Shown here one piece after another: positions 38,263 through 50,914 of a stretch of 64,000 nucleotides of DNA; the stretch's first letter is position 1; every line of letters starts with the position of its first letter. Position numbers and translations under genes: made by a program. The notes beneath the pieces are model-generated. The model was given only the letters and a program-made list of their open reading frames with translations, was not told the DNA's origin and ran no database searches. Source of the stretch: Clostridia bacterium (GTDB taxonomy: Bacteria; Bacillota; Clostridia; UMGS1840); assembly GCA_017936745.1 (NCBI GenBank), contig JAGBEY010000002.1, positions 57,949 to 121,948 of the forward strand. Reading direction: 5' to 3'.

Positions 38263-38485
38263 TGTGATTTCCTCCTTTTCTAAATCAAAATTTTCTTGCC
38301 ATATAATAGTATATAATCTCTCAATATACTATTGTACCACATTTTTAAAAAATGTCCAGTAAAAATTAACATATTTTCAGATTTTTTTCATATGATGAAC
38401 CAACAGGACAAGAAAACGACGCTTCAAATCATATAACGAAGCAGAAAGGAAGCTCTGCTGCACCGGCAAGAGCAACAAAAAAGAC

Positions 38486-43637: not shown

Positions 43638-44678
43638 TTATTCTCCTAAGATATCTTCCACAAAATAAGCATTGGTATCAGCAGGCTTACCGTCCATACC
43701 AAACACAGTGACACGGACATAAATATCGTCAGGGCTTACTTCAAATTCGGCCTCGTTGATATGGTCGCCCTCGGTGGGAAATGCGGTGTAGCTATGGCGG
43801 ACACCGGTGGCACACACAATCCGTTTTGCATCGGAGGTTTTGATGTGAAGCTTATTGCCTTCCATATATAAGCTGTAAATTTCCGGTCCCATGGAAGCAT
43901 AGAAGTTTCCTTTTACCAATGCATCAGTGATGGCACGGTATTCCAACTTTTCCGCTTTAATCATAGTGAAGCCACCAAAGGAATCGCAACGCTGGCTGTC
44001 AAAAGGATAGTGGTTGTGATTGTCGTCTGTTGCAATGCAAAAGATTTTTTTGCCGGCGGAAAGCATTTCATCGTACTGTGCGGAATTATACTCGTCGTAG
44101 CCCTCGGTAACGCAACCGTAGTTGCAGATTTCCATGGCGTTCATTCCTTCGTATTTGCCGTAAATTTCAAACCGCTCCAGCGACCAGGTGGGATGGTTAT
44201 AGGTTACAAAAAAGCCTTTTTCACGGGCGTGCTTCATAATACTGTTGATATTTTCCGAAGTGTATTCTCTGGTCCATAAGGGTTCGGATTCATCATAAGT
44301 TACCTTGTAGCGAGGGTCGTTTAACGCCATAATTCTGTCATAGTTTGCATTGGGAAGAGCAAAACAGGGCTGAACCACGTTGTCGGGGTCCAATGCAATC
44401 AGACAAATGTGACAAACCGGAATCACGTGATAGGGATTTTCTTCGGTCTCATTATCAAAATCGTATTCTGTGCCGGTCAAGGCAACAAAGTTTTCGTCAG
44501 TTAAATCCGGATGTGGAACCATAACCTTATGGTCGGTATAGGCAATAACGGAATAGCCTCGTTTCTGATATTCCGCTTTCATTTCTTCCGGAGACAGTTT
44601 CCCGTCGGACATAGTGGAATGGCAATGCAGGTTTGCCTTGTAAAAAGTGCCGTTTTCCGGCAATAAATATTTTCTCAT
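43638..44678 (-). CDS. PHP-domain metal-dependent phosphoesterase-like protein, paralogue 1
   Basis: ORF trimmed to MRKYLLPENGTFYKANLHCHSTMSDG (HxH of the PHP fold) behind GGGGGAGA. 346 aa. Confidence 0.8.
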   Translation of the reverse strand: MRKYLLPENGTFYKANLHCHSTMSDGKLSPEEMKAEYQKRGYSVIAYTDHKVMVPHPDLTDENFVALTGTEYDFDNETEENPYHVIPVCHICLIALDPDNVVQPCFALPNANYDRIMALNDPRYKVTYDESEPLWTREYTSENINSIMKHAREKGFFVTYNHPTWSLERFEIYGKYEGMNAMEICNYGCVTEGYDEYNSAQYDEMLSAGKKIFCIATDDNHNHYPFDSQRCDSFGGFTMIKAEKLEYRAITDALVKGNFYASMGPEIYSLYMEGNKLHIKTSDAKRIVCATGVRHSYTAFPTEGDHINEAEFEVSPDDIYVRVTVFGMDGKPADTNAYFVEDILGE

Positions 44679-44695
44679 ATCAAAATCTCCCCCGT

Positions 44696-45733
44696 TTATT
44701 TCACATAATCTTCCACAAAGTAGGCATTGGAAGTTGCACGTCTGCCCTCTTTGTCGCACACGGTTACCCGGAAGAAAATATCCTGAGTCCACACATCAAA
44801 AATAACCTCATTCAGCTTGCCGCCCTCCGGACAATATTCGTTATAGCAATGACGAATACCGGACGTAAAATTGATAATTGCAGCATCAGAAGTTTTCACA
44901 TGCAGCTTATTACCCTCCAGATACATACTGTAGATTTCGGGGCCCATAGAAGCATAGAAATGCCCTTTCTTAAGAGCATCGGTGATAGAACGGTAATCTA
45001 AATTTTCCGCTTTAATCATGGTAAAAGCACCAAAGGAATCGTTACGAGGGCTGTCAAACGGGTCAAAATTATGATTATCATCGGCAGAAATTCCAAAGAT
45101 TTTTTCGCCGTTATGCAGCTTTTCTTCATACACCTTGGTATTGTACTCATGAAATCCTTTCACATAGGAGTTGTAGTTACAGATTTCGATGGCGTGCATT
45201 CCCTTATATTTGCTGTAGGTTTCATACCCCTCTTTCGACCATTTAGGATGGTTGTAGGTTACAAAAAATCCTTTTTCACGAGCGGTTTTGATTACATCAT
45301 TTACACCGTCGGCAGTGAACACTCTTTCATAATTGGGTTCATTGGGATCTAAAGTCACCTTGTAACGGGGATCGTTTTGTTCCAGCAGTCTGTCATAAAA
45401 CCAGTTTGGTTGATAAAAGCAAGGCTGAATCACATTTTCAGGGTCCAATGCAATCAAACATAAATGCGTGGTTCTTGATTGCTCCCAGGACTGACCGGGA
45501 ATCTCCTCGGAAAAATAGTATTCCATTCCGTATAATGCCACGAAATCGTCACTTTGAAGCTCCGGATGTGGTACTAAGATATTGTGGTCGGTATATGCCA
45601 CAACGGAATAGCCGCGCTGTTTGTACGCCTCTTTGATTTCGTCAGGCGTCAGATTCCCATCGGAAATGGTGGTATGGCAATGTAAGTTTGCTTTATAAAA
45701 CTGTCCGTTTTCCGGTAATAAATAGGTTCTCAT
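44696..45733 (-). CDS. PHP-domain protein, paralogue 2
   Basis: Trimmed to MRTYLLPENGQFYKANLHCHTTISDG. 345 aa and colinear with paralogues 1 and 3. Confidence 0.8.
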   Translation of the reverse strand: MRTYLLPENGQFYKANLHCHTTISDGNLTPDEIKEAYKQRGYSVVAYTDHNILVPHPELQSDDFVALYGMEYYFSEEIPGQSWEQSRTTHLCLIALDPENVIQPCFYQPNWFYDRLLEQNDPRYKVTLDPNEPNYERVFTADGVNDVIKTAREKGFFVTYNHPKWSKEGYETYSKYKGMHAIEICNYNSYVKGFHEYNTKVYEEKLHNGEKIFGISADDNHNFDPFDSPRNDSFGAFTMIKAENLDYRSITDALKKGHFYASMGPEIYSMYLEGNKLHVKTSDAAIINFTSGIRHCYNEYCPEGGKLNEVIFDVWTQDIFFRVTVCDKEGRRATSNAYFVEDYVK

Positions 45734-45746
45734 AGTGAGGTCTCCT

Positions 45747-46769
45747 TTATAAAATATCTTCCATAAAATATGCGTTGGTATCAGCCGGTTTTCCGCTCTT
45801 GTCAAACACGGTTACCCGCACATAAATATCGTCGGGGCGAAGCTCAAATTCTGCTTCGTTTACCGTGTCCCCTCCCGACGGATACTGGCACATTCCATGC
45901 CGGACACCGGTGGTGAACACGATTCTTGCCGCATCCGAGGTTTTAATATGTAATTTATTGTCTTCCACATATAAGCTGTGAATTTCAGGCCCCATAGAGG
46001 CATAGAAATGACCGTTTTTAAGAGCATTGGTAATGCTGTGGTATTCCAGTTTGTCTGCTTTAATCATGGTAAAGCCGCCAAAGGAATCACAGTGTGAGCT
46101 ATCCATAGGATGACCGTTGTGATTATCATCGGTTGCAATACAGTAGAGCTTTTTGCCCTGACGAAGCAACTCGTCATACACATGAGGATTATAATCGTGA
46201 TAGCCCTCGGTAATACAGCCATAGTTGCAGATTTCCATGGCGTTCATTCCCTCGTATTTGCTGTAAATCTCATATCCCTCCTGAGACCATGCAGGGTGAT
46301 TGTAGGTTACAAAGCAACCCTTTTCACGGGAGGTTTTTATCATATCGTTGATATAATCTGCATTATATTGAAACTCATAGGGCGGAATAGATTCATCACG
46401 TTGCACAACAGATTTATCCTCCAGATGCTCATACAGCCAGGAATTACGGAAGCAGGGTTGCACCGTGTAATCCGGGTCGGTGGCAATCAGGCAGATATGA
46501 CAGGTTTTGAGGGCATGAAAGGGTTCTCCGTTTTTTGCTTCCTCGGTGATATCATATTCCACACCATGTAATGCCAGAAAGTCATCTTCTGTCAGTTCAG
46601 GATGAGGTACTAAAATATTATGATCGGTATAAGCAATGATGGAGTAACCTCTTTTTTTGTATTCTTCCTTCATTTCCGCCGGTGACAGTCTGCCGTCTGA
46701 TACATTGGTATGACAGTGCAGATTTGCTTTGTAAAACTGACCGCCCTCGGGTAATAAATACTTTCTCAT
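45747..46769 (-). CDS. PHP-domain protein, paralogue 3
   Basis: MRKYLLPEGGQFYKANLHCHTNVSDG behind AAGGAGAA. 340 aa. Confidence 0.8.
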   Translation of the reverse strand: MRKYLLPEGGQFYKANLHCHTNVSDGRLSPAEMKEEYKKRGYSIIAYTDHNILVPHPELTEDDFLALHGVEYDITEEAKNGEPFHALKTCHICLIATDPDYTVQPCFRNSWLYEHLEDKSVVQRDESIPPYEFQYNADYINDMIKTSREKGCFVTYNHPAWSQEGYEIYSKYEGMNAMEICNYGCITEGYHDYNPHVYDELLRQGKKLYCIATDDNHNGHPMDSSHCDSFGGFTMIKADKLEYHSITNALKNGHFYASMGPEIHSLYVEDNKLHIKTSDAARIVFTTGVRHGMCQYPSGGDTVNEAEFELRPDDIYVRVTVFDKSGKPADTNAYFMEDIL

Positions 46770-46807: not shown

Positions 46808-47911
46808 TCATTTTATGCTATCTCCCAATAGCTTTATGGTTTCTCTGATAGAGATTTTCTGCGGGCAAAGCTCCTCGCAAACACCGCAGCCGAGACATTG
46901 GGTTAAATTACCGCCGTCACGGATAAGCGCCTCTTTCGCCTCACTCCAGGAGGTTTGTGCGGCTAAATGCTTGTTATAAATCGTAAAAATGTCCGGAATC
47001 GGAATTTCTTTCGGGCATTTTTCGGTGCAGTAGCGGCAGCCCGTGCAGGGAATCTGACGAACAGTACGAATCAGAGCACGAAGCTCATTTGCCAGAGAAA
47101 ATTCCTCCTTTGTGAACGGGATAAACGCCTTCATTGCGGAAAGATTTTCCCGAACCATATCCATATTCCCCATTCCCGAAAGCACCATTTCCACCTCGGG
47201 AAAGCTTGCTGCATACCGGATAGCAAAAACTGCCTCACTGTCTTTTGAATTGGCAGAAAGCAGCTCCTTTGCCTGTGCGGGCAGATTCACAAGATTTCCA
47301 CCCTTTACCGGCTCCATCACCAACACTTTTTTTCCGTGTTTTAAACAAACATCGTAACAAGCCTTGCTCTGTATTCCGGGGTCATCATAATCCAGATAAT
47401 TAAACTGGAGCTGCACATATTCAATCTGAGGATGTTTGGAAAGAACTTCATCCAAAAACTCTGCACTGTCGTGAAATGACATAGCAATATGCTTGATTTT
47501 CCCCTCTGCCTTCAGTTCGTCCACAACAGAAAAGGCATCATTCTTTATATGCTTGGCGTAAATCTCTTTGTTGATGCAATGAAAAAGATAAACATCAAAA
47601 TAGTCTACTCCGCATGCCGCCAATTGTTTTTCAAATAACGGTCGAATTTCTTCCTTGGTCTGATAATACCAGACAGAAAGCTTATTTGCCAGCACAAAGC
47701 TTTCCCGCGGATGCCGTTTCACCAGGCACTCCCGAATAGCAATTTCACTTTTTCCGTCTAAATAGCCGTGGGCAGTATCAAAATAGTTAAACCCCTCTGT
47801 CAAAAAGGTGTCTACCATTTCGTTCACTTGTTTATAGTCAACCTATTCTCCGTTCATCGGAAGCCGCATAAACCCAAAGCCGAAATTCTTTTTTACTGTT
47901 TCAAACAACAC
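46808..47911 (-). pseudogene. aldo/keto reductase fused to a 2x[4Fe-4S] ferredoxin domain, interrupted by one in-frame TAG (47845..47843)
   Basis: GTG 47911 behind AGAGGAGG opens VLFETVKKNFGFGFMRLPMNGE-TAG-VDYKQVNEMVDTFLTEGFNYFDTAHGY... in a single frame. The ORF track only lists the part from ATG 47827. The C-terminus has CTGCRYCTEKCP and CLGCGVCEELCP. Confidence 0.7.
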
Positions 47912-47938
47912 AGGGAACGCCTCCTCTTTCATGCATAC

Positions 47939-48219
47939 AAAAATATGGTACAATGCATTTTGTTCATTGTAAAATTAGTGAACAATTTAGATGACACTAA
48001 TGTTTTGTCGATATGCAAACTAAAGTTTGCTCGATATATTTACTCCGTAAATTCGATATGTTTTTCGTTTCACTCAAAACTCGATATGATATAAATCTCG
48101 TTGCGTCAGCAACATATCGAGCCGTAAGGCATATCGAGTGCGATAGCACATATCGAAAATCTCGTCAGAGATTTATATCGTTGATTTCATCTTCGATGAA
48201 ATCATTGTACCATATTTTT
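47939..48219. repeat. 281-bp quasi-palindromic element: 17-bp terminal inverted repeats enclosing 4 direct + 4 inverted TCGATATG octamers, each followed by a private hairpin
   Basis: The terminal inverted repeats are AAAAATATGGTACAATG at 47939..47955 and its exact complement at 48203..48219. Forward octamers start at 48008, 48031, 48053 and 48081. Reverse-orientation (CATATCGA) copies lie at 48113, 48130, 48149 and, degenerate, 48175. Confidence 0.9.
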
Positions 48220-48232
48220 TCAGAAGTTGCAA
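48204..48232 (-). promoter_or_regulatory. sigma-A promoter with extended -10 for the AKR/PHP operon
   Basis: Minus strand reads TTGCAA (48232..48227), 17-nt spacer ending TGg, TACAAT (48209..48204). This leaves a leader of roughly 285 nt before GTG 47911. Confidence 0.55.
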
Positions 48233-48237
48233 GTCTT

Positions 48238-48252
48238 TGTGACAATGTCACA
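48238..48252. promoter_or_regulatory. perfect 7-1-7 palindrome, candidate operator upstream of the -35
   Basis: TGTGACA-A-TGTCACA, centred about 16 bp upstream of the -35 centre. Confidence 0.4.
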
Positions 48253-48310
48253 GTCATTTTCTATTTTTAGTCAAATTTTCCCTGATTCAAAAATCACTTT
48301 TTCCAACCAG

Positions 48311-50914
48311 TCAGGACTTACTGCGCTGAAATAACCGGGACAACTGAATGAAAGCAGTAGGAATCAACGCCAGGAGCGCAACAATTCCAATTTGGCTACC
48401 GCTTAGTGCTGTCACCTCAAACAAACGGTTTAAGAACGGAACAAACAAAACCAAGCCCAACAACACAATTCCCGCCGCAAATGCACCAAGACTTGCCGGA
48501 TTGGAGAACAGACCTATTTTAAAAATCGACTGCTCGCTTCGGCAGTTCAGTCCGTGAAACAGACGTGCCAGCGTAAGGGTGGAAAATGCCATGGTACTTG
48601 CCAGTGCTGCACTTCCTTCATGTAACCCAAGATAGAACGCCGCCATTGTACAAACAGCGATAGCACCCCCCTGCACCAATAGCTGTAACATAAAAGATTT
48701 GGTTAAAATCCCCTCCTTGGGATTTCTGGGTTTTTGAGATAACAGATTTCCCTCTGCCCGTTCCAGTCCAATGGCAATAGCAGGTAAGGAATCGGTTAAT
48801 AAATTCATAAACAGCAGATGCACCGGTGCAAAGGGAACGGGCAACCCCATAACAGAGGTATAAAGCACCGCCAAAATTCCTGCCATATTTCCGGATAACA
48901 AAAACTTAATGGCATTTTTAATATTGCGGTATACATTTCTGCCGTTTGCCACCGCTTGAATAATGGTGGCAAAATTATCATCGGTTAAAATCATAGCGGA
49001 AGCATCTTTGGAAACCTCTGTTCCCGTAATTCCCATAGCAACCCCGATATCAGCTTTCTTTAAAGCCGGAGCATCGTTAACACCGTCTCCCGTCATCGCA
49101 ACAATATGCCCCTTGGACTGCCAGGCGTTAACAATCTGAATTTTATTCTCCGGCGACACCCGGGCGTAAACCGAAATTTTGTCGATGCTTTCAGCCAGTT
49201 CCTCCTGACTCATGGCATCCAATTCCGCGCCGGTTACCGCCAAATCTCCCTCCTTGAAAATGCCAATCTGAGAGGCAATAGCGGTTGCTGTTACCTTATG
49301 GTCACCGGTAATCATTACCGGCTTAATTCCGGCACGAATAGCATCCGAAACCGCCTCTTTGGACTCTGCTCTGGGCGGGTCCATCATAGAAATCAACCCA
49401 AGAAAGATATAACCAGATTCCTCGGAAAGCTCCATCACGGGTGTTTCATCCGATTCTTTATAGGCAAATGCCAGTACACGAAGCCCGTTTTCGGAAAATT
49501 CCATATTCTTTGCCAGAATTTCCGCTTTGTCTGCCGGGGTAATCGGACGAATCCCATCTTCGGTACGAATCTGTTCGATACGGTCTAACAAAACATCCAC
49601 CGCACCCTTGGTTAAAATGGTAGGAACACCGTGAATCCGATACTTTGCCGACATCAGCTTTCTGTCAGAATCAAAGGGAATTTCCGCAATTCTGGGCATT
49701 ACTTCACGGAAAAATTCTTCGTTCATATCAATGGAACGAGTCATTTCCAGCAAACAATATTCGGTAGGGTCGCCAATGCCTTTGCCATCTACAATGGCTG
49801 AATCGTTGGTAAGCATCGCATTGTATAACAAGTAGCGGTGAAGCTGGCTCCGAAGATTCAATTCTTTCACCGATAAGGTTTTTTTGTCAATATAAATTTG
49901 CTGAACCGTCATTTTGTTTTGTGTCAGAGTCCCGGTTTTATCCGAACAAATAACCGAAACACAGCCTAAGCTTTCCACTGCCTTTAATTCCTTAATGATG
50001 GCATTCTCTTTTGCCATTCGCTGTGTTCCCATCGCCTGCACAATGGTTACAATCGAGCTTAATGCCTCCGGAATGGCAGCTACAGCCAAGGCAACCGCAA
50101 ACATCATGGCATCCAGAACCGGCATCCGGCGATATAACCCCAACCCAAACACAATTGCGGAGATAATCATTATCACGATTGCAAGACGGCTGCTGAACTG
50201 GTCCAGACTAATTTGCAACGGTGTTTTCTTTTCCCGGGTGGCGTTCATCAGGGAAGCAATTTTCCCGATTTCAGTATGCATCCCCGTTCCTGTTACCACC
50301 ACGGTAGCACGGCCATATGTCACCAAGCTGCCGGAATACACCATATTCAAACGGTCACCTAAAGGCACTTCATCGGTAATATCCGTCACCTTTTTTTCTA
50401 CATTGGCAGACTCTCCCGTTAAGGAGCTTTCATTCACCTGTATGGAAAAGTTTTCTAAAATTCTGCCGTCTGCCACTACCATATCACCGGCTTCTAACAG
50501 CATAATATCTCCGGGCACCACCATACGGGACGGAACCTCGATTTTCTTGCCGTCACGAAGAACCTTAGCATTGGGAGAGGAAAGGGATTTCAAGCTATCC
50601 AGCGATTTTTCCGCCTTTTTGTGCTGCACGGTCCCTAAAACGGCATTCATAATAATAACCGCAAAAATAACCAGGGTACTTTCTGTGTTTCCCGACACCA
50701 TCGAAATGATTGCTGCAACCATCAGAATGATAACCAGCAAATCCGCAAACTGAGAAAAGAACACTTCCAAAGTGCTTTTCCGTTTCCCTTCCTGCAACAC
50801 ATTGGGCCCATTTTCCTCCAGCACCTTGGCAGCCTGCTGTGAAGAATACCCCTGCACTGTAGCATCCAGTTCCTCTAAAATCTCAGAAACTTGTTTACGA
50901 TAAACTTCTTTCAT
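48311..50914 (-). CDS. P-type cation-transporting ATPase (P2-type, Ca2+/Mn2+ class)
   Basis: Trimmed to MKEVYRKQVSEILEEL behind AAGGAGAAGG. DKTGTLT phosphorylation site, TGES, and GDGVNDAPALK motifs. 867 aa. Confidence 0.9.
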   Translation of the reverse strand: MKEVYRKQVSEILEELDATVQGYSSQQAAKVLEENGPNVLQEGKRKSTLEVFFSQFADLLVIILMVAAIISMVSGNTESTLVIFAVIIMNAVLGTVQHKKAEKSLDSLKSLSSPNAKVLRDGKKIEVPSRMVVPGDIMLLEAGDMVVADGRILENFSIQVNESSLTGESANVEKKVTDITDEVPLGDRLNMVYSGSLVTYGRATVVVTGTGMHTEIGKIASLMNATREKKTPLQISLDQFSSRLAIVIMIISAIVFGLGLYRRMPVLDAMMFAVALAVAAIPEALSSIVTIVQAMGTQRMAKENAIIKELKAVESLGCVSVICSDKTGTLTQNKMTVQQIYIDKKTLSVKELNLRSQLHRYLLYNAMLTNDSAIVDGKGIGDPTEYCLLEMTRSIDMNEEFFREVMPRIAEIPFDSDRKLMSAKYRIHGVPTILTKGAVDVLLDRIEQIRTEDGIRPITPADKAEILAKNMEFSENGLRVLAFAYKESDETPVMELSEESGYIFLGLISMMDPPRAESKEAVSDAIRAGIKPVMITGDHKVTATAIASQIGIFKEGDLAVTGAELDAMSQEELAESIDKISVYARVSPENKIQIVNAWQSKGHIVAMTGDGVNDAPALKKADIGVAMGITGTEVSKDASAMILTDDNFATIIQAVANGRNVYRNIKNAIKFLLSGNMAGILAVLYTSVMGLPVPFAPVHLLFMNLLTDSLPAIAIGLERAEGNLLSQKPRNPKEGILTKSFMLQLLVQGGAIAVCTMAAFYLGLHEGSAALASTMAFSTLTLARLFHGLNCRSEQSIFKIGLFSNPASLGAFAAGIVLLGLVLFVPFLNRLFEVTALSGSQIGIVALLALIPTAFIQLSRLFQRSKS

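Follow-up and report, generated by a model that had tools for sequence, protein, structure and literature searches.

A hairpin-spaced heptamer array of a Clostridia bacterium is a variant of the Gut-1 motif and belongs to a dispersed family linked to PF05635 genes

A 64,000-bp stretch of the genome of a Clostridia bacterium (assembly GCA_017936745.1, contig JAGBEY010000002.1, positions 57,949 to 121,948; hereafter the window) contains a 281-bp intergenic element (47939-48219) made of eight copies of a short word, four in each orientation, separated by small hairpins. The element lies between a P-type ATPase gene and an operon coding for an aldo/keto reductase (AKR) and PHP-domain proteins. We found that it is a TCGATAT-class heptamer variant of Gut-1 (RF01706), a catalogued, uncharacterised motif, and that the sole specific recurrent neighbour of arrays of this kind is a gene coding for a four-helix-bundle protein of the PF05635 family. 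As far as we searched, this link between Gut-1-type arrays and PF05635 genes was previously undescribed. From these sequence comparisons we tentatively favour, at somewhat less than even confidence, the reading that the window element is a solo TCGATAT-class array whose heptamers would be read by a cognate four-helix-bundle oligomer, the hairpins between them being folded out.

The window element consists of two opposed half-arrays

All features that a preliminary description of the window had listed were found where it had placed them. The word TCGATATG occurs exactly on the plus strand at 48008, 48053 and 48081, with the variant TCGATATA at 48031, and its reverse word CATATCGA at 48113, 48130 and 48149, with a degenerate ATATCGt at 48175. 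The whole window holds 10 exact occurrences of TCGATATG compared to 1.4 expected, a count that no shuffle reached, and six of the 10 fall within 150 bp (48008-48156), bearing out the earlier claim that the words cluster beyond chance. Four lone copies lie elsewhere in the window, at 2837, 19315, 32746 and 36646. The spacers of the element form hairpins that are flush with the words and fully Watson-Crick, without mismatch; the third left spacer (48060-48080), too, forms a hairpin, with a conserved 2x2 internal loop. The mutually exclusive pairing noticed previously is exact over 12 of 12 nt (48088-48099 with 48168-48179), and the two 17-nt arms at the ends of the element (47939-47955 and 48203-48219) are 100% complementary. 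A generic detector, searching for any k-mer repeated with flush hairpin spacers, returned the element as its sole match in the 64 kb and none in 20 shuffles, and the fold of the element reached z = −9.3 on the plus strand and −7.9 on the minus strand relative to dinucleotide shuffles. The word count, hairpins, inverted repeats and alternative pairing are far beyond chance. The parts of the element are as follows.

47939..47955: left arm of the 17-bp inverted repeat (AAAAATATGGTACAATG), repeating in inverted orientation the −10 region of the right-hand promoter; specific to this locus
47950..47945, minus strand: possible −10 box TACCAT, with TTTACA at 47973..47968
47971..47966, minus strand: −10-like TACAAT beyond hairpin hp0
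47975..48000: outer hairpin hp0 (TTAGTG...CACTAA), holding the conserved TTTAGATG at 47986-47993
48008..48088, sense strand minus: left half-array of four TCGATAT words (48008, 48031, 48053, 48081); its sense strand has the word as ATATCGA and carries GNA/GNNA loops and a tandem G.A motif
48015-48030, 48038-48052 and 48060-48080: hairpins of the left half-array, flush with the words
48088-48099: centre word GATATAAATCTC, complement of 48168-48179, duplicating the 5′ arm of the last hairpin
48100-48113: central hairpin GTTGC-GTCA-GCAAC, after the centre word
48114..48181, sense strand plus: right half-array, ATATCGA at 48114, 48131 and 48150 and degenerate ATATCGt at 48175
Within the right half-array, plus strand: hairpins GCC-GTAA-GGC, GTGC-GATA-GCAC and AAATCTC-GTCA-GAGATTT
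48182..48204: terminal hairpin or palindrome hpT (TGATTTCATC-TTC-GATGAAATCA)

Read on the plus strand, the loops of the right half are GTCA, GTAA, GATA and GTCA; read on the minus strand, those of the left half are TTTA, GGA, and a GAA flanked by tandem G.A.

Heptamer arrays form a dispersed family with a conserved anatomy

Our scan covered a single genome of each species and required three CATATCGA words close to one another. At least 120 loci carry the array pattern, nearly all of them in metagenome-assembled genomes (MAGs) of Clostridia from ruminant and other guts, including Christensenellales, Oscillospiraceae and Acutalibacteraceae. A single genome can carry several of them, beside genes that are unrelated to one another. 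The full layout of the window element (four TCGATAT, a centre and four ATATCGA, or ++++----, with similar spacings) is present in about 30 of the loci listed, the others being lone half-arrays, oppositely oriented pairs, or pairs with a longer centre. DNA contigs of the sequencing runs that hold the window locus contain additional array copies with other flanks. No array match was found in plasmid and phage collections. Among 2.9 million viral contigs, the pattern matched 37 times, only one match being a true array; the other 36 lack hairpin spacers and serve as a negative control, showing that such spacers are not a by-product of the word pattern. Arrays contain the ends of several metagenome and isolate contigs (runs X1 and X4; window positions 48032 and 48075). 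Such repeats break short-read assemblies, and copy numbers in MAGs are therefore probably underestimated.

The array unit is a heptamer followed by a hairpin, with a single word used throughout any one element. The hairpins vary in sequence from copy to copy and, at orthologous loci, from species to species, while their pairing is kept. RNAalifold analysis of 19 members supported the helices with 17 covarying pairs, and the stems of the window-type set count 654 Watson-Crick pairs versus six others (2 G.U and 4 A.C), so that the self-complementary spacers of the preliminary description are genuine hairpins. The stems of an independent set of elements linked to four-helix-bundle genes contain 869 Watson-Crick pairs versus 5 G.U and 1 A.C. 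At the orthologous loci L019, L085 and L118, in different species, the element has been retained through compensatory changes. Spacers are 9 to 21 nt long and word-to-word spacings range from 17 to 33 bp, which agrees with the view that the irregular spacing reflects folded-out spacers and not phased duplex sites. RNAalifold also predicted, independently, a nested word-to-word ladder of multi-way junctions like the one first proposed for the window; however, lone half-arrays exist, so pairing of forward with reverse words is not the whole story.

The loops have a polarity. Of 155 tri- and tetraloops in the window-type set, 90 are G..A on the ATATCGA strand versus 2 T..C. These G..A loops are of the GNA and GNNA types, the third tetraloop position showing no purine preference. 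Across all heptamer classes, 49 of 73 loops of the distal half are T..C and none is G..A, whereas the proximal half has 34 G..A and 2 T..C among 75. This asymmetry indicates that each half-array has a sense strand, which in the window is plus for the right half and minus for the left. The numbers of non-Watson-Crick pairs (6 versus 15 and 2 versus 4) were too few for a choice of strand from G.U versus A.C. The 2x2 internal loop of the third left-half spacer is likewise conserved, with tandem G.A beside the GAA loop on the ATATCGA strand. Finally, one arm of the outermost hairpin is repeated at the centre and covaries with its repeat (AAATCTC, GAATTC and AAATCCC variants): in 35 of 63 elements linked to four-helix-bundle genes, the centre contains the reverse complement of the first heptamer together with the 5′ arm of the first stem, in 29 different sequences.

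Some loci combine heptamer classes within a few hundred bases, TCGATAT standing beside GCTAAAT, TATGTAA or GCGATAT (L021 2322-3640, L061 1930-2463 and L079 3317-4600, the latter with two tandem units), which suggests insertion hot spots or nested spread. In the Christensenella-like MAGs L008, L025, L050, L062 and L107, short tandem repeats of the ATTCCGCATTCC type flank the arrays, and shared repeat blocks (gctccgtaggagc) are also found near them.

The only recurrent partner of the arrays is a PF05635 gene

Arrays face the starts of 57 genes. These represent 48 Pfam families, of which only PF05635 recurs, with three genes among the matches listed; the others include GerA, HisF, Pth, Lgt and UvrA-associated domains. 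The arrays stand upstream of start codons in either sense. Lone arrays were co-oriented with the local gene strand in 20 cases and anti-oriented in 33, a difference that is not significant and is based on a crude open reading frame (ORF) proxy. The idea that the window element is a riboswitch-like leader dedicated to the AKR/PHP operon was thus abandoned, since homologous arrays flank unrelated genes in either orientation.

All-against-all clustering of the neighbours of the 120 loci listed revealed one specific recurrent gene, which codes for a protein of about 115 aa with a four-helix-bundle fold (PF05635, 23S rRNA intervening-sequence protein or Avd-like). It is present in 12 of these 120 loci and directly adjacent to the array in seven, and no transposase, RAYT or recombinase gene recurs among these neighbours. 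For a reciprocal test, we started from an alignment of the protein, which led to 80 metagenome loci independent of the first scan. As a first composite detector proved over-strict (18 of 63 upstream regions), a moderately strict one was used instead; it found a composite directly upstream of 44 of 63 PF05635 genes and downstream of none of 75. Among the 20 closest homologues of the protein, 17 are preceded by a [CGATAT x3-4][ATATCG x3-4] composite ending 20 to 44 nt before the start codon. At more distant homologues, an identical architecture occupies this position with another heptamer, the word changing between protein clades in at least 15 classes. These words are GCGATAT, ACGATAT, CGATGTA, ATGAAAT, GTGAAAT, TGAAATA, TGAAATC, GTGATAT, AGTTATA, GTGATGT, AATGATG, ATGATAT, AATGAAG, GTGATGC and GAGATAT; GCTAAAT and TATGTAA are also present, in L021 and L061.

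The arrays differ in placement. In classes other than CGATAT, array and gene are usually separated by a promoter (TRTGnTATAAT, in many cases with TTTACA), and the region upstream of the array contains a tRNA gene in 19 and a terminator-like T-run in 17 of 68 loci (L158-L237). In L220 (28-378), it is a tmRNA gene that lies upstream of the four-helix-bundle unit. Four-helix-bundle units frequently follow a tRNA gene and a strong terminator in this way, as integrated elements typically do. In the CGATAT classes, the gap between array and gene is too short for a promoter, so the array must lie in the transcript, and it often follows a rumA-type methyltransferase gene. Arrays starting immediately past the stop codon of a rumA/rlmD-type RNA methyltransferase gene were seen in L019 (6120-6160), L118 (500-545), L160, L163, L164, L167, L172 and L175, and the last codons of such genes (…HVE.V…) form a hairpin at the position of the terminal hairpin of the element.

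The protein profile matches the structural-genomics entries 2RLD and 2GSC, with five chains each, and Avd is a pentamer. Members of PF05635 have been described in rRNA intervening sequences and, in the form of Avd, in diversity-generating retroelements; our searches of the literature on the family found no mention of repeat arrays. The window copy displays the other traits of the composite, namely H then H′ copies of the word, flush hairpins, loop polarity and the centre copy, with no PF05635 gene about 20 to 110 nt after its last H′, where the downstream gene is that of the AKR/4Fe-4S protein. As tblastn found no PF05635 homologue in the 64-kb window, we filed its element as a solo composite.

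The window element compared with Gut-1 and other known systems

Gut-1 was described as a single 77-nt module found in human-gut metagenomes only, probably a non-coding RNA and a candidate small RNA without function or gene association (Weinberg et al. 2010, PMC2864571). It shares the module studied here, four copies of the heptamer (G)UGAAAU with three short covarying hairpins between them, whereas the window word is TCGATAT/ATATCGA. The RF01706 model matches half-arrays of UGAAAU-class composites upstream of four-helix-bundle genes at 50.8 to 68.7 bits, a positive control, and in L184 it matches both halves, on opposite strands. TCGATAT-class arrays occupy the same position upstream of four-helix-bundle genes as those of the UGAAAU (Gut-1) class, and a gut habitat is common to both. 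The model gave no match at E values up to 10 in the window between 47000 and 49000, and no match at its gathering score (50 bits) in 20 TCGATAT-class loci. A sensitive Rfam scan of the window returned only RsaD at chance level (23 bits, E = 0.25) and nothing on the element. The earlier statement that the element matches no known family thus holds for Rfam model scores, whereas its architecture is that of Gut-1 with another heptamer. The description of Gut-1 differs from ours in lacking the inverted-pair composite, the duplication at the centre, the multiplicity of heptamer classes, the existence of solo copies and the link to PF05635. Our literature searches on the word, PF05635 and Gut-1 brought up no account of the composite, of the heptamer classes or of the gene link; for the word itself, only a coincidence with a sigma-28 −10 box was found.

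Several other systems resemble parts of this arrangement. TRAP and HutP sites likewise contain a short word four or five times with spacers of variable sequence, beside a gene for a small oligomeric protein, and a site just upstream of the ribosome-binding site permits control of expression. They differ in having words of 3 nt versus 7 here, whereas obligatory hairpin spacers, inverted pairs and dispersed solo copies are features of our arrays, for which the putative partner is of an unrelated fold and the target might also be DNA. A TRAP/HutP-like mode of binding is suggested by circumstantial evidence, that is, by gene adjacency, by a heptamer that tracks the protein clade and by relatives with five chains. 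The REP/BIME elements of enterobacteria and the BOX elements of pneumococci are also intergenic, multi-copy mosaics of modular hairpins in both orientations, often transcribed with their neighbours and sometimes accompanied by one dedicated gene (REP with RAYT). However, it is the palindrome sequence that is conserved in them, whereas here conservation is confined to the linker word and the palindromes vary freely; moreover, GTAG/RAYT features are absent from our arrays, whose associated gene codes for a non-enzymatic four-helix bundle. Membership in REP/BIME was rejected, the palindromes being free and no transposase-like neighbour recurring in the 120 loci listed, as was membership in MITE, because the terminal repeat is confined to the window, copies are diverged and the flanks AAAAATA/TATTTTT are inverted, not direct. 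The REP/MITE-like and TRAP-like roles put forward in the preliminary description both come close to the reading that the evidence favours here.

The 23S and 16S rRNA intervening sequences that carry a PF05635 ORF share with our elements the protein family, a small insertion size and complementary ends that form a long stem, and in L092 the ORF lies between ATATCGA and TCGATAT arrays that could pair around it. The elements described here nevertheless lie outside rRNA genes, usually with both half-arrays upstream of the ORF. The ROOL and GOLLD RNAs resemble them in their occurrence in rumen and gut Firmicutes, ornate multi-junction predicted folds, frequent tRNA neighbourhood and lack of an assigned function, but show no similarity in sequence or model (Rfam scans were negative) and are non-repetitive over 500 to 800 nt, compared to about 175 to 280 nt built of repeats.

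Local setting of the window element

Both neighbours of the element are encoded on the minus strand, and the stop codon of the P-type ATPase gene is at 48311. The signals outside the arrays are as follows.

48232..48204, minus strand: sigma-A-type promoter with −35 TTGCAA (48232..48227), a 17-nt spacer and extended −10 TGgTACAAT (48212..48204), reading through the element towards the AKR gene
48237..48263, plus strand: terminator-like hairpin and T-run just outside the element
47926..47920, minus strand: ribosome-binding site GAGGAGG of the AKR/4Fe-4S gene, which is the first to follow the element on this strand, with its GTG start at 47911..47909

The plus-strand terminator-like hairpin could stop transcripts before they run antisense into the ATPase gene. 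The AKR gene is followed by three PHP-domain paralogues (43638-46769, minus strand), which are consecutive, partly overlapping and 384, 369 and 340 aa long, all of them weak PF02811 matches. An in-frame TAG lies 22 codons past the GTG of the AKR/4Fe-4S gene (47843-47845, minus strand; …MRLPMNGE*VDYKQ…). The related assemblies X4, X6 and X7 have a G at 47845, giving CAG (Gln); the TAG of the window strain thus reflects either a nonsense mutation or an error of sequencing.

The right arm of the 17-bp repeat (48203-48219) is the −10 region of the minus-strand promoter. The 17-bp repeat, which the preliminary description took to close the element, has no equivalent in the 19 other full-length members, where flank complementarity amounts to 5 to 9 nt. 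It is the extended −10 region of the promoter, found again in inverted orientation at the left end, probably through a local duplication, and does not belong to the family. A two-mismatch copy of this 17-nt sequence, AAAAATGTGGTACAATA, lies at 38330-38346 (minus strand) and is probably another extended −10 promoter. Instead of hpT, other members have another hairpin at this position, or an upstream tRNA gene places its intrinsic terminator there. A TATAAT or TACAAT box 1 nt from the terminal hairpin, often with TGn, was found in L021, L023, L034, L051, L073, L076, L078, L079, L093, L098, L099 and L113; this arrangement recurs in the subfamily that shares the GATTTCATC hairpin. In L054, L072, L075, L078 and L099, TTTAGATG(C) lies at the same place in the outer hairpin, some 12 nt ahead of the first heptamer, and on the opposite strand L078, L079 and L099 carry CATCTAAA-N14-TATAAT. 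The TTTAGATG word may belong to a promoter, or it may be what is left of a different, ATTTAGC-like heptamer class.

Metatranscriptome contigs with 0 to 1 mismatch cover 48008-48206 and none covers the ATPase flank; these contigs are unstranded and of low depth, and much of the element-only coverage is family-wide cross-mapping. Contigs of run X4 (organism A) contain 0.77 to 0.90 of the sampled words of the locus. At least two X4 contigs carry the core of a four-helix-bundle-like ORF, and several further array copies are present in this run.

A trans-acting reader of the heptamers and the alternatives

Eight identical words are replaced together between clades while the hairpins drift, suggesting a trans-acting reader whose specificity travels with the element, for which the adjacent four-helix-bundle protein is the simplest candidate. 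Pairing between the half-arrays does not demand a shared word, and concerted duplication would homogenise the hairpins as well as the words, which again favours a reader acting in trans. Variable spacer length combined with obligatory flush hairpins suggests that the word is read on a single strand with the spacers folded out, and loop polarity would then indicate which strand. We thus favour a mechanism in which the heptamers are putative recognition sites of the cognate four-helix-bundle oligomer, available on a single strand of RNA, or of unwound or extruded DNA, once the spacers fold into mini-hairpins. Four or five heptamers would thereby stand side by side whatever the length of the spacers, following a TRAP-like logic, while intramolecular pairing with the opposite half-array, or with the copy of the first stem arm at the centre, would compete. 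In the window, where the array lies between the sigma-A-type promoter and the AKR ribosome-binding site, a four-helix-bundle protein encoded elsewhere in the genome might occupy the array and gate read-through into, or translation of, the AKR/PHP operon, and the array's own fold could likewise act as a gate. The element could gate this operon in such a way, or it could be a passenger that brought a promoter.

The evidence on the nature of the target points both ways. An RNA target is favoured by the transcript contigs over the element, by the CGATAT-class arrays, which are necessarily transcribed, and by the classification of Gut-1 as RNA. A DNA target is favoured by the scarcity of G.U pairs, the abundance of GNA triloops and of GNNA, CTTG and TTTA loops, the placement between terminator and promoter, and the lack of a clear orientation preference of lone arrays.

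Several points weigh against heptamer recognition by a four-helix-bundle oligomer. To our knowledge, no PF05635 protein is known to read a sequence, and the binding of Avd to nucleic acid is non-specific. Neighbours that are simply inherited together could account for the match between heptamer and protein clade, and the window itself carries no four-helix-bundle gene. In most non-CGATAT classes, arrays lie between an upstream terminator and a promoter and may escape transcription; with CGATAT arrays transcribed and many others perhaps not, a single mechanism at either the RNA or the DNA level fits poorly. The hairpins, with G.U pairs nearly absent and GNA triloops abundant, resemble DNA more than RNA hairpins, whereas Gut-1 was classed as RNA (PMC2864571), and the RNA evidence for the window consists of unstranded, low-depth contigs.

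A structured RNA acting independently of any protein, either as a 5′ leader of the AKR gene or as a Gut-1-like small RNA, seems to us rather unlikely. Nested heptamer pairing would here produce a rod of stacked four-way junctions, the centre copy acting as a two-state switch. The ladder predicted by RNAalifold, the covarying local stems and the strong fold z-scores on both strands are consistent with this proposal, as are a long-range alternative helix maintained through 29 different sequences, a promoter abutting the element, RNA contigs over it and none on its flank, and the judgement of its discoverers that Gut-1 is certainly RNA. However, lone half-arrays are unable to form the ladder, the two halves have opposite loop polarity and G.U pairs are almost absent. 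Although pairing needs no shared sequence, one word fills all eight positions and is exchanged as a set from clade to clade. A terminator on one side and a promoter on the other enclose many arrays, and the downstream genes are unrelated and preceded by arrays in either sense.

We consider it unlikely that the arrays are a selfish or neutral dispersed DNA repeat, an analogue of REP/BIME, BOX or MITE elements that spreads in the form of folded single-stranded DNA. The four-helix-bundle gene would then be its passenger or helper, and the AKR operon would be affected only incidentally, for example by a promoter that the repeat carried in. Genomes do contain several diverged intergenic copies beside unrelated genes, lone half-arrays have no significant orientation bias relative to nearby genes, and different heptamer classes cluster together. 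The tRNA genes just upstream of 19 of 68 units and the tmRNA gene in L220 point in the same direction. DNA mini-hairpins of the d(GCGAAGC) type are stable, and the GNA, GNNA, CTTG and TTTA loops on pure Watson-Crick stems match such structures. PF05635 ORFs are, moreover, passengers of horizontally spread rRNA intervening sequences. Against this explanation, no transposase, RAYT or recombinase recurs near the 120 loci listed, copies are not near-identical and target-site duplications were not seen, the family is almost absent from viral contigs and from plasmid and phage collections, and the compensatory changes in L019, L085 and L118 indicate long-term selection on structure.

A duplex-DNA operator array for a transcription or sigma factor, for example a sigma-28 promoter cluster or decoy, is very improbable. 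TCGATAT coincides with the predicted sigma-28 −10 box of Roseburia and Eubacterium flagellin genes (PMC3720852), and many arrays abut the −35 box of a promoter, but no TAAA lies 15 to 17 nt upstream of the words, the only TAAA (48021-48024) being 6 nt from the next word. Unrelated heptamers replace the word in sister classes, and with word spacings of 17 to 33 bp the sites are not helically phased; the obligatory flush palindromic spacers and the loop polarity would also be left unexplained. The lack of a −35 box and the use of other words in sister classes led us to reject identity with a sigma-28 (SigD/FliA) promoter.

An inversion switch, one of the roles named in the preliminary description and here imagined as flipping the AKR leader by site-specific recombination of the 17-bp repeats, is very unlikely: the perfect repeats do flank 247 bp beside a promoter, a size typical of gut invertons, but they are unique to the window copy and simply the promoter −10 region in two orientations, no recombinase gene lies nearby or recurs near family members, and assembled contigs of X4 and X7 span the locus in the reference orientation without strand-switch joints, although rare variants would escape.

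Significance

The Gut-1 motif, known since 2010, and the PF05635 family were two orphans that can now be tested jointly as a unit of gene plus cognate array, with solo arrays scattered before ordinary genes such as those of the AKR/PHP operon. It is possible, and we advance it with reserve, that PF05635 proteins are in general sequence-specific readers of single-stranded heptamer arrays, reprogrammed clade by clade over at least 15 words, with the hairpins serving as length-independent hinges and with Gut-1 RNAs and hundreds of solo arrays as genomic targets, thereby constituting a hitherto unrecognised system of protein-nucleic-acid recognition with a regulatory, or mobility, role in gut Clostridia. 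If the protein does not read the word, the arrays would still represent a new class of structured dispersed repeat that breaks assemblies and carries promoters. If it does, the arrays and their partner would form a compact, naturally reprogrammable system of single-strand recognition and would add a new level of regulation to uncultured Clostridia that abound in the gut.

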